Virus genome (UHGV): UHGV-0052151
From: a virus
Strand: one strand, 5' to 3'
Length of the DNA: 24,638 nt
Position 1 is the first letter of the stretch. Every line of letters starts with the position of its first letter. Of the stretch, positions 9,359 to 24,588 are shown piece after piece. A program made the translations under genes and the position numbers. The notes beneath the pieces were generated by a model. That model searched no databases and was not told the DNA's origin. It saw only the letters and a program-made list of their open reading frames with translations.

Positions 9359-11125
9359 ATGAACACCACACTGACACCCGCAGATCTCGATCCCCGTCGG
9401 CAGGCCATGCTGCTGTACTTTCAGGGATACCGTGTAGCCCGCATTGCTGAAATGCTGGGCGAGAAAGTTGCAACCGTTCACAGCTGGAAGAAACGCGACA
9501 AGTGGGGTGACTATGGGCCGCTGGATCAGATGCAGCTCACCACCGCCGCACGCTACTGCCAGCTCATTATGAAGGAGCACAAAGAAGGGAAAGATTTCAA
9601 AGAGATTGACCTGCTGGCGCGCCAGTCGGAACGCCACGCGCGGATCGGCAAGTTTAACAATGGCGGCAACGAAGCCGACTTAAACCCTAACGTCGCCAAC
9701 CGCAACAAAGGCCCGCGCCGTCAGCCGGAAAAGAATGTTTTCACCGATGAGCAGATTGAGAAGCTGGAAGAAATCTTCCATTCCTCCATGTTCAACTACC
9801 AGCGCCACTGGTGGGAAGCCGGAAAAACCAACCGCATCCGCAACCTGCTGAAGTCACGCCAGATCGGCGCGACCTTTTACTTTGCCCGTGAAGCCCTGAT
9901 TGACGCTCTGCTTACCGGACGTAACCAGATTTTCCTTTCCGCCAGCAAGGCACAGGCCCACGTCTTTAAGCAGTACATCATCGACTTCGCCAAAGAAGTG
10001 GAAGTGGAGCTGAAAGGCGATCCGATGGTGCTTCCCAACGGGGCCACACTGTATTTCCTCGGCACCAATGCCCGCACGGCCCAGAGTTACCACGGCAACC
10101 TGTATCTGGATGAATATTTCTGGATACCGAAATTCCAGGAGCTGCGCAAAGTGGCTTCCGGTATGGCTATTCACAAAAAATGGCGACAAACCTATTTTTC
10201 CACGCCATCCAGCCTGACACACAGTGCTTATCCGTTCTGGTCCGGTGCGCTATTCAACCGTGGGCGCAATAAAGCCGACAAGGTGGACATCGACCTGTCC
10301 CACAGCAATCTGGCTCCAGGCCTGCTGTGTGCAGACGGGCAATACCGCCAGATAGTCACCGTGGAAGATGCGGTGCGCGGCGGCTGTAACCTGTTCGACC
10401 TTGACCAGTTGCGCATGGAATACAGCCCGGACGAATACCAGAACCTGCTGATGTGTGAATTCGTGGACGATCTCGCGTCCGTATTTCCGCTCAGCGAGCT
10501 GCAGGCATGCATGGTGGACAGTTGGGAAGTCTGGACCGACTTTCATGCACTGGCCCTGCGCCCGTTTGGCTGGCGAGAAGTGTGGATCGGTTATGACCCG
10601 GCAAAAGGTACGCAAAACGGCGACAGCGCCGGATGCGTGGTGGTGGCACCGCCAGCCGTGCCGGGTGGTAAGTTCCGCATTCTTGAGCGTCACCAGTGGC
10701 GCGGGATGGACTTCCGCGCCCAGGCTGACGCCATCAAAAAACTTACCGAACAGTACAACGTGACTTATATCGGTATCGACTCAACCGGCGTTGGTCACGG
10801 GGTTTACGAGAACGTGAAAGCGTTCTTTCCTGCCGTCCGGGAGTTTGTCTACAACCCCAACGTTAAAAACGCCCTGGTACTCAAGGCCTACGACATTATC
10901 AGCCACCGCCGTCTGGAGTTTGACGCCGGGCACACCGACATTGCGCAGTCATTCATGGCAATCCGTCGCGCAACCACCGCCAGTGGCAACCGCCCAACCT
11001 ATGAAGCCAGCCGCAGCGAAGAAGCCAGCCACGCCGATCTGGCCTGGGCAACAATGCACGCACTGTTTAACGAACCACTGCAGGGCGAGTCCGCCAATAC
11101 CAGCAATATTGTGGAGATTTTTTGA
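9359..11125 (+). CDS. P: Terminase large (ATPase) subunit
   Basis: 588 aa (P2 gpP about 590 as I recall); divergent from O; ATGA overlap with Q. Confidence 0.9.
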   Translation: MNTTLTPADLDPRRQAMLLYFQGYRVARIAEMLGEKVATVHSWKKRDKWGDYGPLDQMQLTTAARYCQLIMKEHKEGKDFKEIDLLARQSERHARIGKFNNGGNEADLNPNVANRNKGPRRQPEKNVFTDEQIEKLEEIFHSSMFNYQRHWWEAGKTNRIRNLLKSRQIGATFYFAREALIDALLTGRNQIFLSASKAQAHVFKQYIIDFAKEVEVELKGDPMVLPNGATLYFLGTNARTAQSYHGNLYLDEYFWIPKFQELRKVASGMAIHKKWRQTYFSTPSSLTHSAYPFWSGALFNRGRNKADKVDIDLSHSNLAPGLLCADGQYRQIVTVEDAVRGGCNLFDLDQLRMEYSPDEYQNLLMCEFVDDLASVFPLSELQACMVDSWEVWTDFHALALRPFGWREVWIGYDPAKGTQNGDSAGCVVVAPPAVPGGKFRILERHQWRGMDFRAQADAIKKLTEQYNVTYIGIDSTGVGHGVYENVKAFFPAVREFVYNPNVKNALVLKAYDIISHRRLEFDAGHTDIAQSFMAIRRATTASGNRPTYEASRSEEASHADLAWATMHALFNEPLQGESANTSNIVEIF

Positions 11126-12159
11126 TGGGAAAGAGTAAGAAAAACCGCGCTGCGGCGACGAATCAGATCCAGCATAAAAACCAGACTTCAGCCGAAGCAT
11201 TCAGCTTCGGTGATCCCGTTCCAGTACTTGACCGCCGCGAACTGCTGGACTATGTGGAATGTGTTCAGACAGATCGCTGGTATGAGCCTCCCGTCAGCTT
11301 TGACGGACTGGCGCGCACCTTCCGCGCTGCCGTGCATCACAGTTCCCCGATTGCAGTAAAGTGCAACATTCTGACCAGTACCTATATCCCTCATCCGCTG
11401 CTCAGCCAACAGGCTTTTTCGCGTTTTGTGCAGGACTATCTGGTATTTGGTAACGCCTACCTGGAGAAACGCACGAACCGATTCGGTGAAGTTATCGCCC
11501 TTGAGCCTGCGCTGGCAAAATACACCCGACGCGGGTTAGACCTGGATACCTACTGGTTTGTGCAATACGGTATGACAACCCAGCCGTATCAGTTCACGAA
11601 AGGCAGCATTTTTCATCTGATGGAACCGGACATCAACCAGGAGATCTACGGCCTGCCCGGCTATCTTTCTGCCATTCCATCCGCCCTGCTCAACGAATCC
11701 GCCACGCTGTTCCGCCGTAAGTATTACATCAACGGTAGTCATGCAGGCTTCATCATGTACATGACCGACGCCGCGCAGAATCAGGAGGATGTGAACAACC
11801 TCCGCAACGCGATGAAAAGCGCCAAAGGTCCAGGCAACTTCCGCAATCTGTTTATGTACTCGCCTAACGGCAAAAAGGACGGACTTCAGATTATCCCGTT
11901 GTCAGAAGTCGCAGCGAAGGATGAGTTTCTGAATATCAAGAACGTGAGCCGCGATGACATGATGGCAGCACACCGAGTGCCGCCGCAAATGATGGGGATT
12001 ATGCCTAATAATGTCGGGGGGTTTGGGGATGTGGAGAAAGCCAGCCGCGTCTTTGTTCGCAATGAGTTGATACCTCTGCAGAAGCGCCTTCAGGAATTGA
12101 ACGACTGGCTTGGAGAAGAAGTCATGCGTTTTGAAGATTATAATTTAGGTATTGAATGA
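11122..12159 (+). CDS. Q: Portal (capsid vertex) protein
   Basis: 345 aa (P2 gpQ about 344 as I recall); immediately after P. Confidence 0.9.
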   Translation: MMGKSKKNRAAATNQIQHKNQTSAEAFSFGDPVPVLDRRELLDYVECVQTDRWYEPPVSFDGLARTFRAAVHHSSPIAVKCNILTSTYIPHPLLSQQAFSRFVQDYLVFGNAYLEKRTNRFGEVIALEPALAKYTRRGLDLDTYWFVQYGMTTQPYQFTKGSIFHLMEPDINQEIYGLPGYLSAIPSALLNESATLFRRKYYINGSHAGFIMYMTDAAQNQEDVNNLRNAMKSAKGPGNFRNLFMYSPNGKKDGLQIIPLSEVAAKDEFLNIKNVSRDDMMAAHRVPPQMMGIMPNNVGGFGDVEKASRVFVRNELIPLQKRLQELNDWLGEEVMRFEDYNLGIE

Positions 12160-12164
12160 TATTT

Positions 12165-12195
12165 AAAAGCCTGTACAAACAGGCTTTTATTCTTT
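12165..12195. terminator. Bidirectional rho-independent terminator between convergent Q and cargo operon
   Basis: AAAAGCCTGT-acaa-ACAGGCTTTT hairpin with an A-run on one side and a T-run on the other, 6 nt after the Q stop. Confidence 0.6.
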
Positions 12196-12228: not shown

Positions 12229-12894
12229 TTAAAGATCCGGATCTACAGGCTCATGATATAGATTTACAGGGTAATGAATAACTTCATAATTCAGTTGAGT
12301 AACTGTGTGAACATGCTGGCTATAAAAAACCAATGGATTTTTTTGACAAGGAGTAATCGTTATAGATTTACAGGCATGAATTCTTGGTGCGAATTTATCT
12401 AAATGCGCCTTCCAGTTGCTCATCATTTCATTACATTTTCTATTACGAGTATAGATAATCAATCCACCACTTGCGCTGTCTACGGTCCCTGTACTATATC
12501 GCTCAGTGAGTTGAGCATACCCTTTAAATAAATAACTATATGAAGATGTATGTTTTTTGGCTTCGCCATGCCAAATATAATCCTTTAGTTTTATTGTAAT
12601 ATCACAATGTCCGCGCTGATTATTTTCATGATATGCTTCAATGCCCATATCTTTATTTTTGATATTGGCCAATAAAATTAAAGTAAGCTGATCTTCTGTT
12701 AAATCGAAGTTTAACTTATTTGAATTCTCTTCTATTTCCTTTACAGCAGAATCAAGTTCAATCCTGACAAATTGTTTGAAATTATCGTACGATTGAAGTG
12801 CAAATCTAACACGAGTAATAGAAGCATTAATACGCTGAAGAAAAATATCATTATCAATATCAGCCAAACTCATTGCTGCAGACATTTTTAACAT
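12229..12894 (-). CDS. Hypothetical protein, third gene of AT-rich three-gene operon; weak PD-(D/E)xK-like motif
   Basis: 221 aa; ATG at 12894 shares one base with the upstream stop (TGATG); AT-rich codons; segment GHCDITIKLKDYIWHGEAKK; no family recognised. Confidence 0.6.
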   Translation of the reverse strand: MLKMSAAMSLADIDNDIFLQRINASITRVRFALQSYDNFKQFVRIELDSAVKEIEENSNKLNFDLTEDQLTLILLANIKNKDMGIEAYHENNQRGHCDITIKLKDYIWHGEAKKHTSSYSYLFKGYAQLTERYSTGTVDSASGGLIIYTRNRKCNEMMSNWKAHLDKFAPRIHACKSITITPCQKNPLVFYSQHVHTVTQLNYEVIHYPVNLYHEPVDPDL

Positions 12895-13328
12895 CAGATA
12901 ATATCCTTTGATTTAGATTCATCTAATGTAAAAAAAGGAAATACGAATGACTTATAGTCATACATAAGCTCCCCTGTAAATGGGTTTGCTAAAGATTGAC
13001 TGATTTCCGCCTCAATAACTTCCTCTATTTCAAGTTCTACAGGGTCATGAAAATCATCAACGAACCAATAATTGAGTTTTAAAAAATCAACCTTTGGGCT
13101 ACAAAGAATTTGTATGGCCGGATAGATAACCTGCTCATACGTTTCTGGCTGTAAAACCTTATTATAACCACCAGCTATATTAAATAAATCCTTATAACTT
13201 AAAGCTATATTTGATGATTTTTTAGCCCTTGCCTCGATTTCATCGTACAAATAGCAAGCTAACGCCCCAATTTCAGGGCGTTCTGCACACATTTCTTTGA
13301 TGATCTTGGGCATATCACCATCCTTCAT
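12894..13328 (-). CDS. Hypothetical acidic protein, second gene of the operon
   Basis: Track ORF 12894-13340 (TTG); ATG at 13328 with GGAG 6 nt upstream preferred; acidic C-terminal half (EIEEVIEAEISQS...); no family recognised. Confidence 0.55.
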   Translation of the reverse strand: MKDGDMPKIIKEMCAERPEIGALACYLYDEIEARAKKSSNIALSYKDLFNIAGGYNKVLQPETYEQVIYPAIQILCSPKVDFLKLNYWFVDDFHDPVELEIEEVIEAEISQSLANPFTGELMYDYKSFVFPFFTLDESKSKDII

Positions 13329-13340
13329 TGCTGACTCCAA

Positions 13341-14447
13341 TTATAATATCAGCTTTGTGAGGGTTTCGAAATCATCTTTGGATATACATTTACTTAATAT
13401 AGCATAGTTAACAGGAGAGCAACTACTCCCTCCTAGATGCCTGCGGAGTGTTCCCGGAATGATAAGCTCTACGTTATCCGCTAATTGCAGTTTTGGATTA
13501 TTTCTATCAACTCTAATTCCAATACGATACAAACCAATACTGCCTACTGCTTTGATGCCTTCCTTATTAAACAAATCATCACGTAAGTCTTTAGTGGCCA
13601 CATTTTTCTTTTCTTTATGCGTAGTCCCCTCATTCGTCAAAAATGACAAATCAAAGACTTTATAGCTTAATTTTGAATAAGGCAATGAATTTTGTTTGAA
13701 AATTGGCTCAATTAACGGATAAAAATCTTTTTCCGATGATTTAAATTCATAACCGACATGATTATACAATTCACGAATAATGTTACTCTTTGCAAAAGTA
13801 ACATTATCACCAATAATATTACCATTAGTATCTACCAAAACATGAATTTTATTAGTAACAGAGTCTAATATACAGACATCAAAACATTGTCGCTTTTCTT
13901 TTCGCTTTGCAATAATTTCATCAAACTGCTTGTATTGCGCAAGTGCTGACGGGGGAATTTTTTCTCTTACAACTAATTCTCTGACAGATGAAAAAACAAG
14001 TATTGACTGGGTGTTTTGAATAGAATAATTAACAAGTTCAGGTTGATTTTTTACAGCATTTTGCAATTGGACATCATCAAGGATCGAATCAACCAATAAT
14101 GATGGTTGATTCATCAAATTCCATTGAAAACTAAATCTGTCATTTAGTGTTTTAATTACACTATTATCTACAGTCAAACTAAATATTGCTTTTTCACCAT
14201 AAACGACCTGACCAAAAATTAGGTCATTTACGTTTGCCATAATGCCATCAAACTTTTGCCTATCTTTACTTTTAAGATCAATGAGGCTTTCTAGTATTTT
14301 TTCGTTTGTTGCTTCACGCCCCCTACCTGTTGGCAGCCCTAAAGACGCAATAATTGGCCTTGCAACGTTCCATGTGAAACGTTCAGTTAAGGTCAAGATC
14401 GACTTTAACTCAGACTTAGAAAGCACTACTGGGACACTACCTGTCAT
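13341..14447 (-). CDS. Hypothetical protein, first gene of the operon
   Basis: Track ORF to 14456 (GTG); ATG at 14447 preceded by AGGTG; about 368 aa; no P-loop or other motif recognised. Confidence 0.6.
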   Translation of the reverse strand: MTGSVPVVLSKSELKSILTLTERFTWNVARPIIASLGLPTGRGREATNEKILESLIDLKSKDRQKFDGIMANVNDLIFGQVVYGEKAIFSLTVDNSVIKTLNDRFSFQWNLMNQPSLLVDSILDDVQLQNAVKNQPELVNYSIQNTQSILVFSSVRELVVREKIPPSALAQYKQFDEIIAKRKEKRQCFDVCILDSVTNKIHVLVDTNGNIIGDNVTFAKSNIIRELYNHVGYEFKSSEKDFYPLIEPIFKQNSLPYSKLSYKVFDLSFLTNEGTTHKEKKNVATKDLRDDLFNKEGIKAVGSIGLYRIGIRVDRNNPKLQLADNVELIIPGTLRRHLGGSSCSPVNYAILSKCISKDDFETLTKLIL

Positions 14448-14597
14448 AACTTGCACCTAGTCATCCAAAAAGCAATAAGAATTTGCTCTTGTCTTAATTT
14501 ATCCTTCGATACCTAACAAATTACCTCAATGTTGAAAAAATTTGCAAGCCATTTGCTTCTAAAAAGCGACCTTACTCAGAGTGTTACAAAACTAAGC

Positions 14598-14633
14598 GAG
14601 CGCGCGCTCGTATCCCCGCCACGCCTGCCCGCT
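14598..14633. other. Candidate cos (cohesive-end) site
   Basis: Minus strand reads GGCGTGGCGGGGATACGAG; its first 13 nt match the P2/186 19-nt cohesive end as I recall it (GGCG[A/T]GGCGGGGAAAGCA[C/T]). It sits in a GC-rich island between Q and A, where cos is expected; a 14-bp perfect palindrome CGAGCGCGCGCTCG (14598-14611) is adjacent. Confidence 0.4.
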
Positions 14634-14947: not shown

Positions 14948-16525
14948 CTACAATACTTTTCTCTCGATGGTATTTTTAATAGTCAACATATCTTTAGGAA
15001 TACTTTTTTTCCCCTCTATACGTATGGTAAACACAAAAAGAATAACGGCTGATCTCACAATTTTCATGAGTTGTAAGAGCTGTTTCTCAAACTTTTCTTT
15101 CTCAATAAACCTCACCTCATCAAAAAACCCATAAGAATTATATAAATCAACTAACATGTCTTTCTCGTGAATAACTAACAGTTTATGTTCTAAATCATTC
15201 CTCCATTCTTTAAAAAAAGCAAGCTCACCATTTTTATCATTCAAATCCATAGCAATACTAAACAAACCCAGCAATCCTTTATTATTTATTTTGTTTATTT
15301 TAAGCTTTCTTTTTTCATCACTAATCCGCCAGAAGTTATGAAAGTATATATGTCCTCTATCTGGTTTTAAATCAAATAATTGACACAGAGCAACTGCTAT
15401 TTTATCCAAGATACCAAAGCAAGCTCTAAATGCAACCCTTAACTTCTCAACATTTTCATACAATATTTCTCCATTATACAATTCAGAATAACATACCTCC
15501 GAATCCTCATCAAAAAACTCACTATCAACCTTATATTCAAAAAACATTTTTCGTGCTAAGGAATACTCAGCTTTAAGTCTATTTAACACCATTTCCATTG
15601 GCACTATAAAATCACCAAACACACCTTCCTCGGTGGTAGCAATAGTTATATTATCTTTAGATGACGCATAACAATTGCAATATAGCGAATGATCAGACAA
15701 CATTAGATTATTATCTATACAAAACCTCTGGTAGTTTGATAAAGTATCATACTCCTCCTGCGTGAGCCTTTCATCTGTACTTATATCCTCTATGCCATAT
15801 ACACATGATTCACTCAATATACTTTCGTTGTACTTTATTTTTCTTTGAAGAGCAACCTTCCATGAAGGAAAACATTTCCCTGACTTTATTGCACACTCAT
15901 AACCTCGAATAACTTCTTTAATCATTTTATATGTATATGTTGTAGATAATTCATTAAGCAATTCTAATGCCTCAGATCTGTTTACCCACGCCTGAGGAAT
16001 TGAGTTATCAATAGATATTGCTTGTTCATAATAATCCATTGATTCAGATATACGATATTGTTTTTTTAATACATTAGCTAGATTAACTATTAAATCAGGG
16101 GGCACCCATCCATCTTCTTGTGAAAGTTTAAACGCTTTCCAGTAATTATTTTTTACATCATTCAGCTTAATGAAACTATCAATATCTGCATTGTCATTAG
16201 GATTAAAATCAAGAACTGCGCTCATTCCATTTGCCAAGTTATAGTAATATAAGGATTCTTTCATTATAGTCAGAAATTCATTTTTATTGTTTATAAAGAT
16301 ATTTAAGCCTTCCTCTGCTATATTTTTTACATTACTAAAACTTCCGATATCAATAAGATTTCCGGCCAAATTAGATAATATAATTATTCTATTTTCTTTG
16401 ATTGTATTTATCTCATCGATACCGTTAAGAATATCCTTTACATTTTTATAGGCAGAATCAAATGAACCTGCATTAATAAGATCATCTACGAACCCCATTT
16501 TTGAAACAACATAGTTGATATCCAT
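14948..16525 (-). CDS. Hypothetical 525-aa protein; helical/TPR-like N-terminal region, C-terminal Rx4H (HEPN-like) motif
   Basis: ATG at 16525 with AGAGGA 6 nt upstream; strongly AT-rich; occupies the old/tin position of P2; no Walker A, no reverse-transcriptase YxDD motif; WRNDLEHK near residue 442. Confidence 0.6.
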   Translation of the reverse strand: MDINYVVSKMGFVDDLINAGSFDSAYKNVKDILNGIDEINTIKENRIIILSNLAGNLIDIGSFSNVKNIAEEGLNIFINNKNEFLTIMKESLYYYNLANGMSAVLDFNPNDNADIDSFIKLNDVKNNYWKAFKLSQEDGWVPPDLIVNLANVLKKQYRISESMDYYEQAISIDNSIPQAWVNRSEALELLNELSTTYTYKMIKEVIRGYECAIKSGKCFPSWKVALQRKIKYNESILSESCVYGIEDISTDERLTQEEYDTLSNYQRFCIDNNLMLSDHSLYCNCYASSKDNITIATTEEGVFGDFIVPMEMVLNRLKAEYSLARKMFFEYKVDSEFFDEDSEVCYSELYNGEILYENVEKLRVAFRACFGILDKIAVALCQLFDLKPDRGHIYFHNFWRISDEKRKLKINKINNKGLLGLFSIAMDLNDKNGELAFFKEWRNDLEHKLLVIHEKDMLVDLYNSYGFFDEVRFIEKEKFEKQLLQLMKIVRSAVILFVFTIRIEGKKSIPKDMLTIKNTIERKVL

Positions 16526-17398: not shown

Positions 17399-19813
17399 TT
17401 AATACAGGTTCCGCCACTTATCATCTTCCTGCAAACGCTGGTTCCGATAGAAAATACGCAGGCCTGCTCCTGACGGAATGCTGCCGCCGCGAAGGAGTAA
17501 ATCGACCTCTTTCTCGCTGCCATCAAATCCTCTGGACTTCAGTTCATAGACGAGCTGCTGTCGCTGATGATCTGTAATTCGCTGTTTGTAGTCTCTACGC
17601 CGTTTCGGTTTCACCAGGCGTAACCTTGCAGCCAGTTCCCGACGCTCTTTTTTGTTCATACTGTGCAGGTAATCGTGCAATTCCTTGTCATCCATGCGGG
17701 TGATATCCGTTCTGGTATCCCCATCAGCTGATTTGTCTTTCCCTTGTTGGTACAAATTTTCAGCAAGGGGACAGTTATTGCCACGAGTCCAAGGGGCGCA
17801 AGCGCCATGGTCGGCTGCCGCCTCCTGAACGTCAACGGCCTTACGAACCATTTTCCACTTCACGGCATGAGTGCAGATCTTGCCCTCTGCAATAGGTGAC
17901 CAGATGCCATAAATACGAATGCCGTGATCGCCATAGGCGGTCGGCTCTTCGTTGATTTCATAAGCAGTTCTGATGAGGTGATATTTACGGGGAACCAGTA
18001 CGCCGCCCTGCTTCATGATGTAGGTGGCAAAACAACCAGCATCAGCAGCAGCCAGGATTGCATCAAGCCGCGGGTTATCCAGTACCGGCGCACCTGCTTT
18101 TTTGTCACCCTGTTGCCTTGCCGCCTGACCAGCCAGCAATCGCAGTTCACGGTAAGCCTGACGCCCCGGAATGCCAAAGAAGCGGAATTGCTGAACACGA
18201 TGCAGAGACGCCCAGGCATTCACGTATTCAGCGTTATCACGCAGGGATTTACCCGTTTCCTTGCTGATCTCGCCAGCCAGACCACGCCCGTCAATGTTCT
18301 TACTGATATATTTCGCGATGTAGCTTGTCGGCGTTCCTTTGCGCGGGTTAATCAACTCAGACTTAAAGCGTGGTCCCGTGTTATTCCCCAGCTCCTCGCG
18401 GTCTTCACGAATGGCAAACTTACGCAACAAAGCAGTAATGGCGCGGCGATCTTTTTTGCGCATAAAACACAACAGGTGCCAGTGAACTGTACCGTCATGA
18501 TGCGGCTCAGCCACCCGCACGCCATACCAGCGCAATCCGGCTTTGTGCATCGCCTTACGAAATGCAGCAAACATGCCAACCAGATAATCACTGCTTTGTC
18601 TTACCGTCGCATTTGTCCAGGTCGGGTTGGGCCTGCCGTTATTTAGCGTGGAATGGAAACGTGACGGACAGGTGATGGTGTAGAAAACGGCGCAGTCACC
18701 GCGCATTTCCGCGATAAGCTCCAGGCCTTTAACACAGGCCATCATCTCATTGCGGCGATGCGCAGGGTTGCTGCTGCTGGCGTTTACCACATCCTCCATG
18801 TCCAGCGTGTCGCCGTCTTCGTTCACCAGTTCATGAGAACGGAAAAACTCCAGCGACTTACGGCGCTGCTCACGTTTATGCATCACGGCTTCATAGCTGA
18901 CATAGGGAGATGCTTTTTTGCTGACCAGACAGACAGCACGCAACTGCTCTTCCCGCCATTCGCAACGCATCTTCCATAATTTCCGATACCACCAGTCGGC
19001 GCACAGCATACGCGCCAGCGAACCCGGAATGAGTTCATAGGGCACAGGTTTGCGGCGGTTTCTTTTCCGGCGGAGTTGCTCAAACGCAGGCGGTATGACA
19101 TCCAGTCGCAGGGTTTCTGCTGCCACCTTTTCCCATGTCTTGCGGATTTCTTCCGGCTTAACATCATCGGAGGCGTACAAATCACCACAAGCGGCATCAA
19201 GGCACATACTCATATGCGCAGCTACCAGGGTGGACAGGCGTTTCACCTGATCCTGACTCATTTCAGGCAGGATCAGCAGGCCGTCCAGCCCTTCATGGCT
19301 TGCCATAAAGCGAAAAGACGCAGATAGCTGACTGTCGCGTACATGCTCCAGTCGTTCCAGACATGGCTTAATCGTCTCACGCAAATAGCGGGAATAAGCC
19401 TTTGGCCTGCTCAGGCTGCTGAAGTATTCAATACGTTGCATCAGCGGCTTGCTGATATGGGAAGGCTGGGCGTTGACGTCCGCCAGAATGACCATATCCG
19501 GATTAAAACGCTGCTGCTCATGCGCCAGCTTTGCCCGACTAATGAGCTTATCCTGTTCCATTTCGCGCTGGACAGGATCACGGGATTCATTAAAGAAATA
19601 ACGCTCCCAGACCTGATCACTCAGCGCCTCACGGCGCAGCTGTTCCTGCTCGTTATCGGCAGCGTACAGAGTGATCAGGTTTGAAAGCGCAGAAACCGGC
19701 GCAACTTCCGCCGGGTCCAGATAAGGGTTAATGGCCTTTTTCGGGCTGTTCCATGAGAATGCTGCGGCGACCTCGTTAAAGCCGCTGCAGTTGTTCATAT
19801 CAGCATGGCTCAT
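17399..19813 (-). CDS. A: Rolling-circle replication initiator (P2 gpA-like)
   Basis: 804 aa; HUH motif (VHWHLL) and paired active-site tyrosines (YIAKYISK); ATG at 19813 overlaps the dam stop (ATGA). Confidence 0.9.
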
Positions 19814-20667
19814 GCACGCACTCCGTACACGGCAGAACTATCCACGCCACGCGAAGGATCAAATCCCACCCAGCAGCGCGGCCCGGAAACAGCGATGATT
19901 TCTGTTGCAGATTTACTCTCACCAGCTGCCACACCGATGCTGCGTTTTGCCTTGATGTAGTGGTGAGTAAAATTGCGATATAGCGAACGGATCAGGGATG
20001 TGTCACTGTTAGAAACAATGACCGGATGTCCTTCTGATGACCGATGTTCAAGAACGGATGCCAGGTGATACTGGTCATCTTCAGTGAAACCATCAGTGTG
20101 ATAGCCGGAAAACGTACCGTCATACGGCGGATCGCAATACACCACATCCCCCACCTGCAGCATCGCCAGCGTTTCATCAAAGCTTGCGCAGATAAACGTT
20201 GCCCGCTGGGCTTTCTCTGCAAATGCGCGAATTTCTTTTTCAGGGAAATACGGATTTTTATAATTACCGTACGGAATGTTGAAATGCCCGCTCTTGTTAT
20301 AGCGACATAAACCACGGTAACCGTGACGATTGAGATACAGGAAATATACCGCTTTCATGAAATCAGTAATTTCAGTTGAGTAATTAAACTCCTGCCTTAT
20401 GTTGTAATAAGCCACCTCCCTGTTTGCTTCCTTAAATAAAACTCTGGCGCGAGATATAAACGATTCACAATCAGCGGCAACCTTTTTATAGAGGTTGATT
20501 AAATCAGGATTAATATCCGCAACCAGATAGCTTGGATAATCCGTCGCCATCATCACAGCACAGGAACCTGCGAAAGGTTCAACCAGTCGCGGGCCAGCAG
20601 GAAGGTGTTTTTTCAGTTCGGACATAATTGCGGTTTTATTTCCCGCCCATTTCAGGATGGTGCTCAT
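19810..20667 (-). CDS. dam: DNA adenine methyltransferase (Dam family, orphan)
   Basis: Track ORF to 20727; ATG at 20667 ([11 protein letters not shown]...) preferred; motif [10 protein letters not shown] and motif IV DPPY (VYCDPPYDG); no adjacent restriction gene. Confidence 0.85.
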
Positions 20668-20891
20668 ACAGCACCTCCGTTGTAATGTTTGCCTTTCAGC
20701 TCTGCGATTTCCTGACAGGTAATGCAAAGCTGCACACCTGGAATGGCGCGGCGGCGTGCTGGCGGAATTGGCGCTTCACACTCAATGCAAAGCACGCGGG
20801 ACACGCCCGGCGTTTTGGCACGGGCAGCACGGATATGGCGCTGGCGTTCTTCTTCAACGCGCTGCTGTACGAGATCCATTGCATCAGCCAT
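20664..20891 (-). CDS. TraR/DksA-family C4 zinc-finger protein
   Basis: 75 aa with CIEC-x17-CITC spacing (CxxC-x17-CxxC) typical of phage TraR-like proteins. Confidence 0.65.
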   Translation of the reverse strand: MADAMDLVQQRVEEERQRHIRAARAKTPGVSRVLCIECEAPIPPARRRAIPGVQLCITCQEIAELKGKHYNGGAV

Positions 20892-21704: not shown

Positions 21705-22214
21705 TCACAGCAAACCGAATGACGCACCGAGGCCAGTTACAGTATCAACTGCACTTGCCATCGCAGGATTAGCCTGTAAACGGGCCTGCAATGAAACAGC
21801 CGCCAGCGCCATCAGTCGTGTTACAGAGTTAATGCTGCTGATGGCATCACGACGACCGGCACAGGTTTTTACATCGCCAGATACCGCACCTGCAGCAACA
21901 CGCCCGATCTCTGCGGTTGCACTCATGACGTAATGTGGCAGTTTCTCTTTTGCCACCTCATTAATCGGTACACATGGCAGACAATGAATCTGTGCCAGAA
22001 AACCATCTACCAGCGTTGAATCTTCAGTCAGATCGGTAAGCAGCCAGATTTCTGGTGCGGTTAATAAATGAGGCTGAGCTGGGTTCAGCTTGTTCCGCAG
22101 AATCTGCACATTCATGCCTGCACGTTCTGCCAGTTGCACCAGATTGTGGCGCAGTGCAAATGCACGACAGGCTTCATCAAAATGTGGATGTTTGGAAACT
22201 TGGTAATCAAACAT
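21705..22214 (-). CDS. cII: CII-like lysogeny-establishment regulator (186 type)
   Basis: From ATG at 22214 the product starts [24 protein letters not shown] and ends SFGLL, closely resembling 186 CII as I recall it; 169 aa. Confidence 0.8.
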
Positions 22215-22246
22215 GGTCAATGCCTCTGATGTATTTCAGAATCGAA

Positions 22247-22468: not shown

Positions 22469-22593
22469 GATGCAACATTCCTCGTTTAATGATGATTAAT
22501 CAGGACGAATACGGATCGTTTGTATTTTGTGAACACCATAAACATACGATCGCACGATGAAATCGTCAAGATAAAAGTTCACTTGGAGTGACC
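22469..22593. promoter_or_regulatory. Lysis-lysogeny switch region (face-to-face pR/pL, CI operators expected)
   Basis: 125-bp region between divergent apl and cI; direct repeats ATACGGATCG (22509-22518) and ATACGATCG (22544-22552), each with a GATC, and inverted repeat ACGAT-GAA-ATCGT (22554-22566). Confidence 0.4.
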
Positions 22594-23163
22594 ATGAATT
22601 TGGAGAAAGGCGGACGAGGCGCTATAGAGCGCATGGTAGAAGCTTATGGATTCAAAACTCGACAGGCGTTGTGCGATCATTTAGGAATCTCTAAAAGTAC
22701 ACTCGCTACACGCTACATGCGTGACTCATTCCCAGCAGAATGGGTAATCCAGTGCGCCCTTGAAACGGGCACCTCGCTTAATTGGCTCACAACTGGACAT
22801 GGTTCAAAGCAAACTTCAGGTAATACAAATACGATGGAAGTTGCTAAATATGTATTATCTGATGGTGCCTTGCGTGAAGACGGTTTTTATATTTTTGATA
22901 AGGGATTTCTACCCTCTACGTTTAAAAAACCTTTTGTCATCACAGATAACAATTCTGAATTTATTTGTGATAAAGAATTTGATGATATACGTGATGGTAA
23001 ATGGGTAATAAGTATTGATGGCGAAATAACAATCCGCGACATTACTCGTTTACCCGGTGGAAGAATCTTCGTTGAAGGTGGAAACAGAGCCTTCGAGTGC
23101 AAGATAGAAGATGTTGAAATAATTGGAAAAATTATAAGTTTAACAATTAAGTACGTTAGGTAA
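22594..23163 (+). CDS. cI: CI immunity repressor (186 type)
   Basis: ATG at 22594 with GGAG upstream; 189 aa; segments VEAYGF, CALETGTSLNWLTTGHG and ITIRDITRLPGGRIFVEGG resemble 186 CI as I recall it. Confidence 0.85.
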   Translation: MNLEKGGRGAIERMVEAYGFKTRQALCDHLGISKSTLATRYMRDSFPAEWVIQCALETGTSLNWLTTGHGSKQTSGNTNTMEVAKYVLSDGALREDGFYIFDKGFLPSTFKKPFVITDNNSEFICDKEFDDIRDGKWVISIDGEITIRDITRLPGGRIFVEGGNRAFECKIEDVEIIGKIISLTIKYVR

Positions 23164-23370: not shown

Positions 23371-23556
23371 TTTTTGCTTTTATATCTGCGCCTAATATAA
23401 CAATGAGCCGCAGGCTAACCGCAAAAGTCACATACTCACATAGCAAAAAATAGCCAACTTCATTATGGCTTCAGTGAGATGTATGGTCGCAAGATTTCAT
23501 ACATTGACACTGGTTATACATACAGTAAAAATGCTCTCTATTGGAGGGCATTTTTT

Positions 23557-24588
23557 ATGGCAGTACGAAAACTCACCACAGGAAAATGGCTTTGCGAATG
23601 TTACCCCGCCGGACGTAGTGGGCGTCGTGTGCGTAAACAATTCGCCACCAAAGGCGAAGCACTGGCTTTTGAGCGTCACACGATGGAAGAAACCGAAGCA
23701 AAGCCCTGGCTGGGCGAATCAGTAGATCGTCGAACCCTGAAAGACGTGGTTGAGCTATGGTTCAAACTACATGGTAAATCTCTGACTGCTGGGCAGCATG
23801 TCTATGACAAATTGCTGCTGATGGTTGACGCTCTGGGCAATCCCCTTGCAACCGATCTCACATCTAAAATGTTTGCCCATTATCGAGATAAACGACTGAC
23901 AGGTGAGATCTACTTCAGCGAGAAATGGAAGAAAGGGGCCAGCCCGGTCACCATTAACCTGGAGCAAAGCTATCTAAGTAGTGTTTTTAGCGAACTATCC
24001 CGCCTGGGCGAATGGTCGTATCCAAACCCACTGGAGAACATGCGAAAATTCACCATCGCAGAAAAAGAGATGGCATGGCTTACCCATGAGCAGATTGTTG
24101 AACTGCTGGATGATTGCAAACGTCAGGACCCAATTCTGGCACTGGTAGTCAAGATATGCTTAAGCACAGGCGCACGCTGGCGAGAAGCAATAAACCTTAC
24201 CCGATCACAGGTGACCAAATACCGAATTACCTTTGTAAGAACGAAGGGGAAGAAAAACAGAAGCATCCCTATCAGTAAAGAGCTTTATGAAGAGATCATG
24301 GCGCTTGATGGGTTCAATTTCTTCACAGACTGCTATTTTCAATTTTTATCCGTGATGGAAAAAACGTCTATCGTGCTCCCTCGCGGTCAACTTACACACG
24401 TTCTGCGTCATACGTTTGCGGCGCATTTCATGATGTCGGGTGGAAACATCCTTGCTTTGCAAAAAATCCTCGGACATCACGACATAAAAATGACTATGCG
24501 TTATGCTCATCTATCACCTGATCACTTAGAGACAGCTCTTCGTTTCAATCCACTAGCAACTTTGGATGTTACTAAATCAGATTCTTAA
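23557..24588 (+). CDS. int: Tyrosine integrase
   Basis: Track ORF from 23479; ATG at 23557 with GGAGGG RBS gives MAVRKLTTGKWLCECYPAG...; C-terminal HVLRHTFAAHF (HxxR) and MRYAHLS (catalytic Tyr) motifs; 343 aa. Confidence 0.9.
   Translation: MAVRKLTTGKWLCECYPAGRSGRRVRKQFATKGEALAFERHTMEETEAKPWLGESVDRRTLKDVVELWFKLHGKSLTAGQHVYDKLLLMVDALGNPLATDLTSKMFAHYRDKRLTGEIYFSEKWKKGASPVTINLEQSYLSSVFSELSRLGEWSYPNPLENMRKFTIAEKEMAWLTHEQIVELLDDCKRQDPILALVVKICLSTGARWREAINLTRSQVTKYRITFVRTKGKKNRSIPISKELYEEIMALDGFNFFTDCYFQFLSVMEKTSIVLPRGQLTHVLRHTFAAHFMMSGGNILALQKILGHHDIKMTMRYAHLSPDHLETALRFNPLATLDVTKSDS

Follow-up and report, generated by a model that had tools for sequence, protein, structure and literature searches.

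An RdgC-fold protein, a small acidic protein and a predicted BamHI/BglII-like nuclease are encoded by a mobile prophage cassette, a candidate nuclease-based defence system

The virus genome UHGV-0052151, analysed here as a single window of 24,638 nucleotides, is a P2/186-type Escherichia coli prophage (100% identical to NZ_OY754398 and 99.7% to strain MS 115-1) that carries, between its portal gene and cos, a cassette of three minus-strand genes, named here A, B and C. Gene A (13341-14447) encodes a 368-residue protein with a modelled RdgC fold and a conserved N-terminal helix-loop-helix, for which the role of a DNA-binding sensor is proposed. Gene B (12894-13328) encodes a small acidic protein of 144 residues (isoelectric point, pI, of 4.4), a possible adaptor or regulator of a nuclease, and gene C (12229-12894) a 221-residue predicted PD-(D/E)xK endonuclease of the BamHI/BglII type, the proposed effector. 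The ATG chosen as the start of A yields the 368-residue product and, although the open frame extends to a GTG at 14456, the protein start MTG... is backed by the alignment of homologues. The TAA of A is followed by 12 nucleotides, TTGGAGTCAGCA, containing a GGAG placed 7 nucleotides before the ATG of B, whereas the stop TGA of B and the start ATG of C share one base (..ATCTGATGTTA..) in a TGATG overlap. In RefSeq, B is recorded with 139 residues in one strain and 144 in another.

Re-examination of the open reading frames recovered the gene sizes, the 12-nucleotide gap and the one-base overlap described in an initial annotation made from the sequence alone. Its estimate by eye of about one-third G+C, against more than half in the flanks, also agrees with the measured values: 34.1% for A, 35.2% for B and 33.0% for C (24-31% at third codon positions, GC3, across the three), compared with 51.5% for the portal gene (GC3 61%) and 52-63% for the flanks. 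The AT-rich block does cover the three genes as that annotation had drawn it, but it does not stop there, continuing past cos to ~16,800 and including a fourth gene. Comparison with the 85%-identical copy in E. coli KFu019 gives ratios of non-synonymous to synonymous substitution rates (dN/dS) of 0.13 for A, 0.15 for B and 0.06 for C, with a value of 0.065 for the portal gene. Since these ratios are low (0.06-0.15) and homologues of all three proteins occur in other phyla down to ~20% identity, A, B and C are, on this evidence, real genes under purifying selection. Neither an Rfam family (at E≤1) nor a meaningful repeat was detected in the AT-rich block, which thus has no retron-like non-coding RNA or CRISPR-like array; the upstream non-coding region from cos to gene A (14448-14606, minus strand), the presumed promoter region, likewise has no Rfam family match.

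The operon fills the slot between portal gene and cos, as the initial annotation had located it, because portal gene Q (11122-12159) ends at 12159 and the cos core, a 19-nucleotide cohesive-end sequence on the minus strand (GGCGTGGCGGGGATACGAG, a unique exact match), lies at 14607-14625. The cos core bounds the cargo slot and is outside the A-B-C system itself. At the opposite end, between the convergent Q and C genes, a terminator scan found a palindromic hairpin (12164-12189; 11-bp stem, loop of 4, T-run), which is likely a bidirectional terminator closing the operon. The variable P2 locus near cos invoked in the initial annotation corresponds to gpA-cos-gpQ, the hotspot that Rousset et al. 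2022 (PMC9122126) described in P2-like prophages. Indeed, the cassette lies between the gpA gene (17399-19813) and portal Q, adjoining cos, and protein A (WP_000148121) is entered among the hotspot loci in Table S5 of that study. The cassette was not among the systems tested there, being absent from the 30-odd cloned systems of its Table S2. The same cos variant is also present in the P2-hotspot clone pFR109 of Rousset et al. (PMC9122126).

That clone carries Rst_3HP ('hp+hp+hp'), which Rousset et al. 2022 (PMC9122126) validated against phage P1 and which, like the cassette, consists of three genes without annotated domains in the same hotspot of E. coli P2-like prophages. However, the proteins are unrelated (333, 359 and 227 residues in Rst_3HP versus 368, 144 and 221 here), BLASTP gave no match below E 0.4 and hhalign probabilities remained under 1% for all nine profile-sequence pairs, and identity with Rst_3HP was rejected. 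For P4 beta and cII, the comparison was limited to hhalign and gave no signal, and KELShedu and a 'modularity' preprint were found to be unrelated to the cassette.

The AlphaFold2 monomer model of C (predicted local distance difference test, pLDDT, of 90; predicted template modelling score, pTM, of 0.86) displays the α-β-β-β-α-β core of restriction-endonuclease-like proteins, and the structures closest to it are those of the type II enzymes OkrAI, BamHI, BstYI and BglII, at 8-10% identity. Within the motif GHCD98-x12-E111-A-K113, residues D98, E111 and K113 do not vary among 36 close homologues, nor do E67/D68, H89/E90, Q128 and R132/Y133 elsewhere in the protein; the pattern GH.D...W.GE.K recurs in 12 of the 13 family members in the alignment, cyanobacterial and metagenomic ones included. 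By model and motif, C is a BamHI/BglII-like PD-(D/E)xK endonuclease of predicted activity, although sequence and profile searches of the PDB with C returned no match. C differs both from these type II enzymes and from the defence effectors HamA, NucC, Can2 and McrC, with identities of 8-10% and no cognate methyltransferase. Activation by cyclic nucleotides or by a helicase is not indicated, since the cassette has no CARF/SAVED, cyclase or helicase gene.

The structural matches of C to true type II enzymes raise the alternative of a restriction system devoid of methylase, either modification-dependent and type IV-like or solitary and type II-like. C would then be sequence- or modification-specific, with A and B serving as subunits for specificity or control. 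In keeping with this alternative, relatives of the cassette adjoin or alternate with the type IV enzymes Mrr and GmrSD. However, similarity to the PD-(D/E)xK fold does not predict sequence specificity, A and B are unlike known specificity, NTPase or controller subunits, and in ~20 loci the conserved cassette comes without a methyltransferase. We consider this alternative improbable. The methylases found near relatives of the cassette are part of separate complete systems or of phage backbones, and the Dam-type methylase of the window (19810-20727) belongs to the backbone, not to the cassette. A restriction-modification system proper was rejected because no methyltransferase belongs to the cassette.

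Results of a Foldseek search with the AlphaFold2 monomer model of A (pLDDT 86, pTM 0.84) show RdgC as the closest structure (E 1e-5, probability 1.0, 316-351 columns), followed by CENP-N and CENP-L. As modelled, A has the RdgC fold, while sequence and profile searches of the PDB with A gave no match. E. coli RdgC (PF04381) is a ring-shaped DNA-binding protein that modulates RecA. It differs from A, which exceeds it in length by 65 residues and includes a conserved N-terminal helix-loop-helix; moreover, E. coli rdgC is a solitary chromosomal gene whereas A is always encoded with B and C. The additional element (residues ~20-55) consists of two helices joined by an extended loop, with the family-wide pattern R.PW...L..L..G.GW..T..K, and from this pattern we infer a resemblance to the SAP/HeH DNA-binding motif. 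Residues K86, D190, D206, R289 and G297 are invariant or nearly so in the wide family, the two conserved aspartates being unexpected in a purely DNA-binding RdgC-like protein. Close homologues form 37 clusters for A, 11 for B and 37 for C, all 'hypothetical' and, where the organism is named, almost all from Enterobacterales; the resulting alignments had enough depth for confident models of A and C. A profile search of 1.84 billion representatives extends the A family to 424 clusters at E≤1e-3 (225 at E≤1e-10), nearly all of 340-380 residues, and the members checked have neither a Pfam domain nor a name.

The fold of A invites comparison with the RexAB system of phage lambda. According to Adams et al. 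2024 (PMC11077077), lambda RexA, RdgC and IML3/CHL4 share one fold class, and RdgC and RexA bind DNA non-specifically (PMC11077077). RexAB and the cassette are both prophage-borne accessory cargo, the largest component of each has a fold of the RdgC/RexA/IML3-CHL4 class, A thus having the RdgC-like fold of the Rex sensor, and the logic proposed for both is that of a DNA-associated sensor controlling a separate effector. However, the RexAB effector, RexB, is a polytopic membrane protein with four transmembrane segments, whereas A, B and C have none, as judged from a maximum 19-residue Kyte-Doolittle hydropathy of ≤1.07. The cassette is not a RexAB system, in that A has no sequence homology to RexA and no membrane RexB is encoded.

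Homologues of B are present in every A-B-C set, and the protein is acidic in 18 of 18 family members (pI 4.3-5.2). B has no detectable relative outside its own family. A single-sequence match in the PDB to designed armadillo repeats (3e-7) was rejected as spurious because it disappears with the family profile and has no counterpart among Pfam ARM/HEAT families.

The cassette is rare and patchy in E. coli, occurring in 21 of 5426 complete genomes, as expected for accessory defence cargo. A DNA-level search found it in none of the deposited phages, in agreement with the absence from the P2 and 186 reference genomes that the initial annotation had anticipated, and among 50,697 phage records the matches are limited to phage KP12 and Stx1a phages. 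Wherever flanking DNA was sufficient to judge, relatives keep the order A-B-C, with proteins of ~350-380, 97-149 and 206-266 residues and junctions that are usually overlapping or close. Homology across these triads is detected by hmmsearch for A (1e-12 to 1e-39) and C (1e-27 to 1e-73) and by phmmer for B, the protein of this window matching the other triad B proteins at 6e-7 to 9e-12. The triad is found in P2-like prophages of Rosenbergiella, Plesiomonas and Klebsiella and in phage KP12, always beside portal Q; in lambdoid Stx1a-converting phages of 23 E. coli genomes (O145:H28 among them), where it stands between the antiterminator gene Q and stx1A; on plasmids of Enterobacter, Klebsiella (6.1 kb), Calothrix (Cyanobacteria), Pseudomonas, Vibrio, Moritella and Pantoea; and on metagenomic islands. 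In phage Stx1_499 (L006:4854-6961), a distant triad whose A protein is 22% identical belongs to the late-transcribed moron region, with the Shiga toxin genes directly downstream of it. A 2.9-kb contig labelled as a Turicibacter metagenome-assembled genome (L003, JBOFCV010000430.1) contains a P2 portal fragment and the triad; its presence in a Firmicutes bin is probably a binning error and not a real Firmicutes occurrence, because the same study holds a Plesiomonas metagenome-assembled genome with a near-identical cassette. In E. coli KFu019 (L033, NZ_CP091700), the tape-measure, sheath and terminase genes of the decayed prophage are pseudogenes, yet its portal gene and its 85%-identical triad remain intact, which suggests that the cassette was retained for the benefit of the host.

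This distribution bears on whether the cassette might serve the life cycle of the phage or plasmid, through control of recombination or RecA (as by RdgC), a bias between lysis and lysogeny (as reported for RexA), or, near cos, the processing of intermediates in replication or packaging. The RdgC fold of A would fit such a role, as would the position beside cos and near a DinI-like gene, and Adams et al. (PMC11077077) describe RexA as acting on the lambda switch without need of RexB. However, the cassette is missing from P2, 186 and nearly all P2-like prophages, it is found on non-phage plasmids and islands of distant phyla that have no replication or packaging context in common, and its foreign base composition marks it as exchangeable cargo. 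For these reasons a life-cycle role is very unlikely, and the opposite side of cos is, in addition, swapped independently.

In about a dozen sampled loci, the neighbourhoods of the triad contain defence genes. These include a CBASS (an anti-phage system that signals through cyclic oligonucleotides) cyclase of the SMODS type accompanied by a SLATT effector (L024); a complete type I restriction-modification system together with a reverse transcriptase and an HTH-M78 protein (L022); Mrr, an Eco57I/MmeI-like enzyme and a helicase, with an adjoining integrase (L025); an EcoRI-type methylase and GmrSD/HNH in a small GPA/integrase element (L028); SocA_Panacea, HATPase_c_3, a reverse transcriptase and integrases (L019); AbiEi (L011); and, in the present window, a TPR-HEPN gene within the AT-rich block of the triad. 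In one plasmid (L020; GCA_020615655.1, NOVY01000095.1) the cargo slot is occupied by the triad in one copy and by GmrSD in the neighbouring tandem copy. This plasmid and that of L021 are small ColE-like mobilisable plasmids with a backbone of MobC, Replicase/PriCT and RelE/HTH, and the A protein of this plasmid type (P0090) is indexed in 230 blocks of an assembly collection.

The most informative of the loci, a two-gene variant on a phage-like contig of JGI metagenome 3300064044 (L016:2765-4764), departs from the three-gene layout. Its C homologue (3.7e-73) is preceded, with a stop-start overlap, by a gene for a 458-residue protein in which a TIR_2 domain (3.5e-12) and two hydrophobic helices are followed by a B domain at the C-terminus (hmmsearch 1.5e-27). 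Because the TIR and two-helix module is fused to a B domain upstream of C, this arrangement shows, at the level of domain matches, that B and C form a portable core, with which a TIR module can take the place of the RdgC-fold protein. Such swapping of front ends is characteristic of defence systems and therefore favours a defence role.

The same gene contexts can also be read in terms of addiction. In a toxin-antitoxin (TA)-like module, C would be a DNase toxin, B a labile acidic antitoxin and A a DNA-binding regulator or stabiliser, and the main role would be to maintain prophages and plasmids by post-segregational killing instead of stopping phages. In favour of this reading, B is a small protein, acidic throughout its family, whose translation is coupled to that of the nuclease; small mobilisable plasmids of 6-9 kb carry the triad as their main cargo; and the triad often stands beside RelE/ParE modules and is kept in a decayed prophage. 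However, the small plasmids that bear the triad already have a RelE-type module, a strictly conserved large third partner of 340-380 residues is unusual for type II TA systems, and the TIR-fusion variant together with the repeated adjacency to restriction-modification, CBASS and reverse transcriptase genes favours immunity. Addiction thus seems to us plausible but less likely, and it overlaps the preferred explanation in so far as TA behaviour and abortive infection are not mutually exclusive.

Taken together, folds, motif, gene coupling and contexts make the cassette a well-supported candidate: it may represent a new defence family, modular and nuclease-based, whose sensor fold is distinctive. 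That it is a self-contained, mobile, three-component nuclease-based defence or exclusion system, carried as prophage accessory cargo at the P2/186 hotspot, has in our estimation a slightly better than even chance, and the same proposal becomes distinctly probable when TA-like abortive modules are counted in. The initial annotation had likewise put defence first among its hypotheses, and the relatives in defence islands and mobile-element cargo slots lend support to it as a hypothesis, function being deduced from context; the confident homology of all three proteins to a characterised non-defence module that might have contradicted it was not found. The broader idea that the triad represents an unrecognised and widespread immune family, in which B and the BamHI-like nuclease are a portable core attached to varied front ends (an RdgC/RexA-fold sensor or a membrane-anchored TIR), is tenable, with a chance that falls somewhat short of even.

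In the mechanism that we propose for the defence system, the targets would be phages or other mobile elements. A would bind DNA and sense a DNA state associated with infection, such as intermediates of replication or recombination, DNA ends or a phage protein complexed with DNA, by analogy with what has been proposed for RexA. Translational coupling would provide B in fixed proportion with C, and B, through putative contacts with both partners, would bridge the sensor to the nuclease and probably keep C inactive until triggered. Once released or activated by the presumed trigger, C would cut DNA and halt phage replication, either by degrading phage DNA or through abortive infection.

Several observations weigh against this interpretation. 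The defence phenotype is one that we infer from folds, motif, coupling, modularity and contexts, and the neighbourhood evidence comes from the sampled loci, not from a statistical enrichment test. The similarity of A to RdgC is at the level of the fold only, with global TM-scores of 0.36-0.43, 8-10% identity and a different relative orientation of the domains. Comparison by hhalign gave no signal for A and E. coli RdgC (probability 0.5%) or for A3 and lambda RexA (0.2%), and the value for A and the RexA-like protein of pFR81 is 0.5%; nor did Pfam family PF04381 match A, or 68 members of its family, at E≤1. The relation of A to RdgC and RexA, as seen in the models, is structural and without a sequence link. 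A general basic DNA-binding surface is not evident from the sequence of A because pI varies from 5.0 to 9.3 across the family. The family profile of B has no Pfam or PDB match, and a consensus scan for a sigma-70 promoter upstream of A gave nothing above chance. In PADLOC-DB v2.0.0 (5027 models), no family matches A, B or C at E≤1, and two distant C homologues show a weak match to the candidate PDC-S54 (7.8e-5). The cassette is also named in no paper or database found via accession, PHROG identifier or 'RdgC-like'. In the same vein, PADLOC gave nothing consistent for 68 diverse A homologues, Pfam and NCBIfam have no match for the three proteins, and in PHROGs they match only three families of unknown function. 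That the initial annotation could place none of the proteins in a known family is in line with the silence of PADLOC, Pfam and NCBIfam, but its list of absent signatures had overlooked the classical D-x12-E-x-K nuclease motif of C. The two folds, the broad distribution and the TIR-fusion variant lay beyond the reach of that annotation.

To our knowledge, the RdgC fold has so far been linked to immunity only via lambda RexA, the mechanism of which has been unresolved for decades. If the proposed interpretation is correct, the cassette would define a new multi-gene defence family with an unusual sensor, and the RdgC fold would become a recurrent immune DNA sensor beyond Rex, with a second, soluble output for Rex-like sensing. 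A soluble and biochemically tractable pairing of RdgC fold and nuclease could reveal what RexA-like proteins sense. The association of the B-domain and nuclease core with TIR would offer an example of defence-module recombination and a handle for finding more systems. The cassette could also influence phage susceptibility and the outcome of phage therapy in clinically relevant strains, because its carriers include P2-like prophages, Stx1a phages, upstream of stx1, and small mobilisable plasmids of Klebsiella and Enterobacter.

The remainder of the window is largely prophage backbone. Besides portal Q and the capsid genes, it comprises terminase P (9359-11125), the replication gene A product gpA (PF05840), and the 186-like CII/CP76 (21705-22220), CI repressor (22588-23163) and integrase (23479-24588) genes. 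A second AT-rich dip, at 22.8-23.6 kb, falls on the intergenic region between CI and int together with the adjoining end of the CI gene and start of int, with no additional cargo. The DinI-like gene (PF06183; 16813-17046, minus strand) lies just within the hotspot, beside gpA.

Beyond cos, the AT-rich block holds a minus-strand gene (14948-16525) for a 525-residue protein with tetratricopeptide repeats (TPR) and a C-terminal HEPN_LA2681 domain (PF18733, 1.8e-38). It was rejected as a fourth component of the cassette, since carriers of an identical or 85%-identical triad have other genes at that position, which makes it an independent module, and distant triads occur without it. BLASTP detected no similarity to the two HEPN proteins of Rousset et al., of which partial sequences were compared, and which were without effect when tested in that study (PMC9122126). 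The TPR-HEPN gene is probably an independent single-gene defence candidate encoding a putative RNase.

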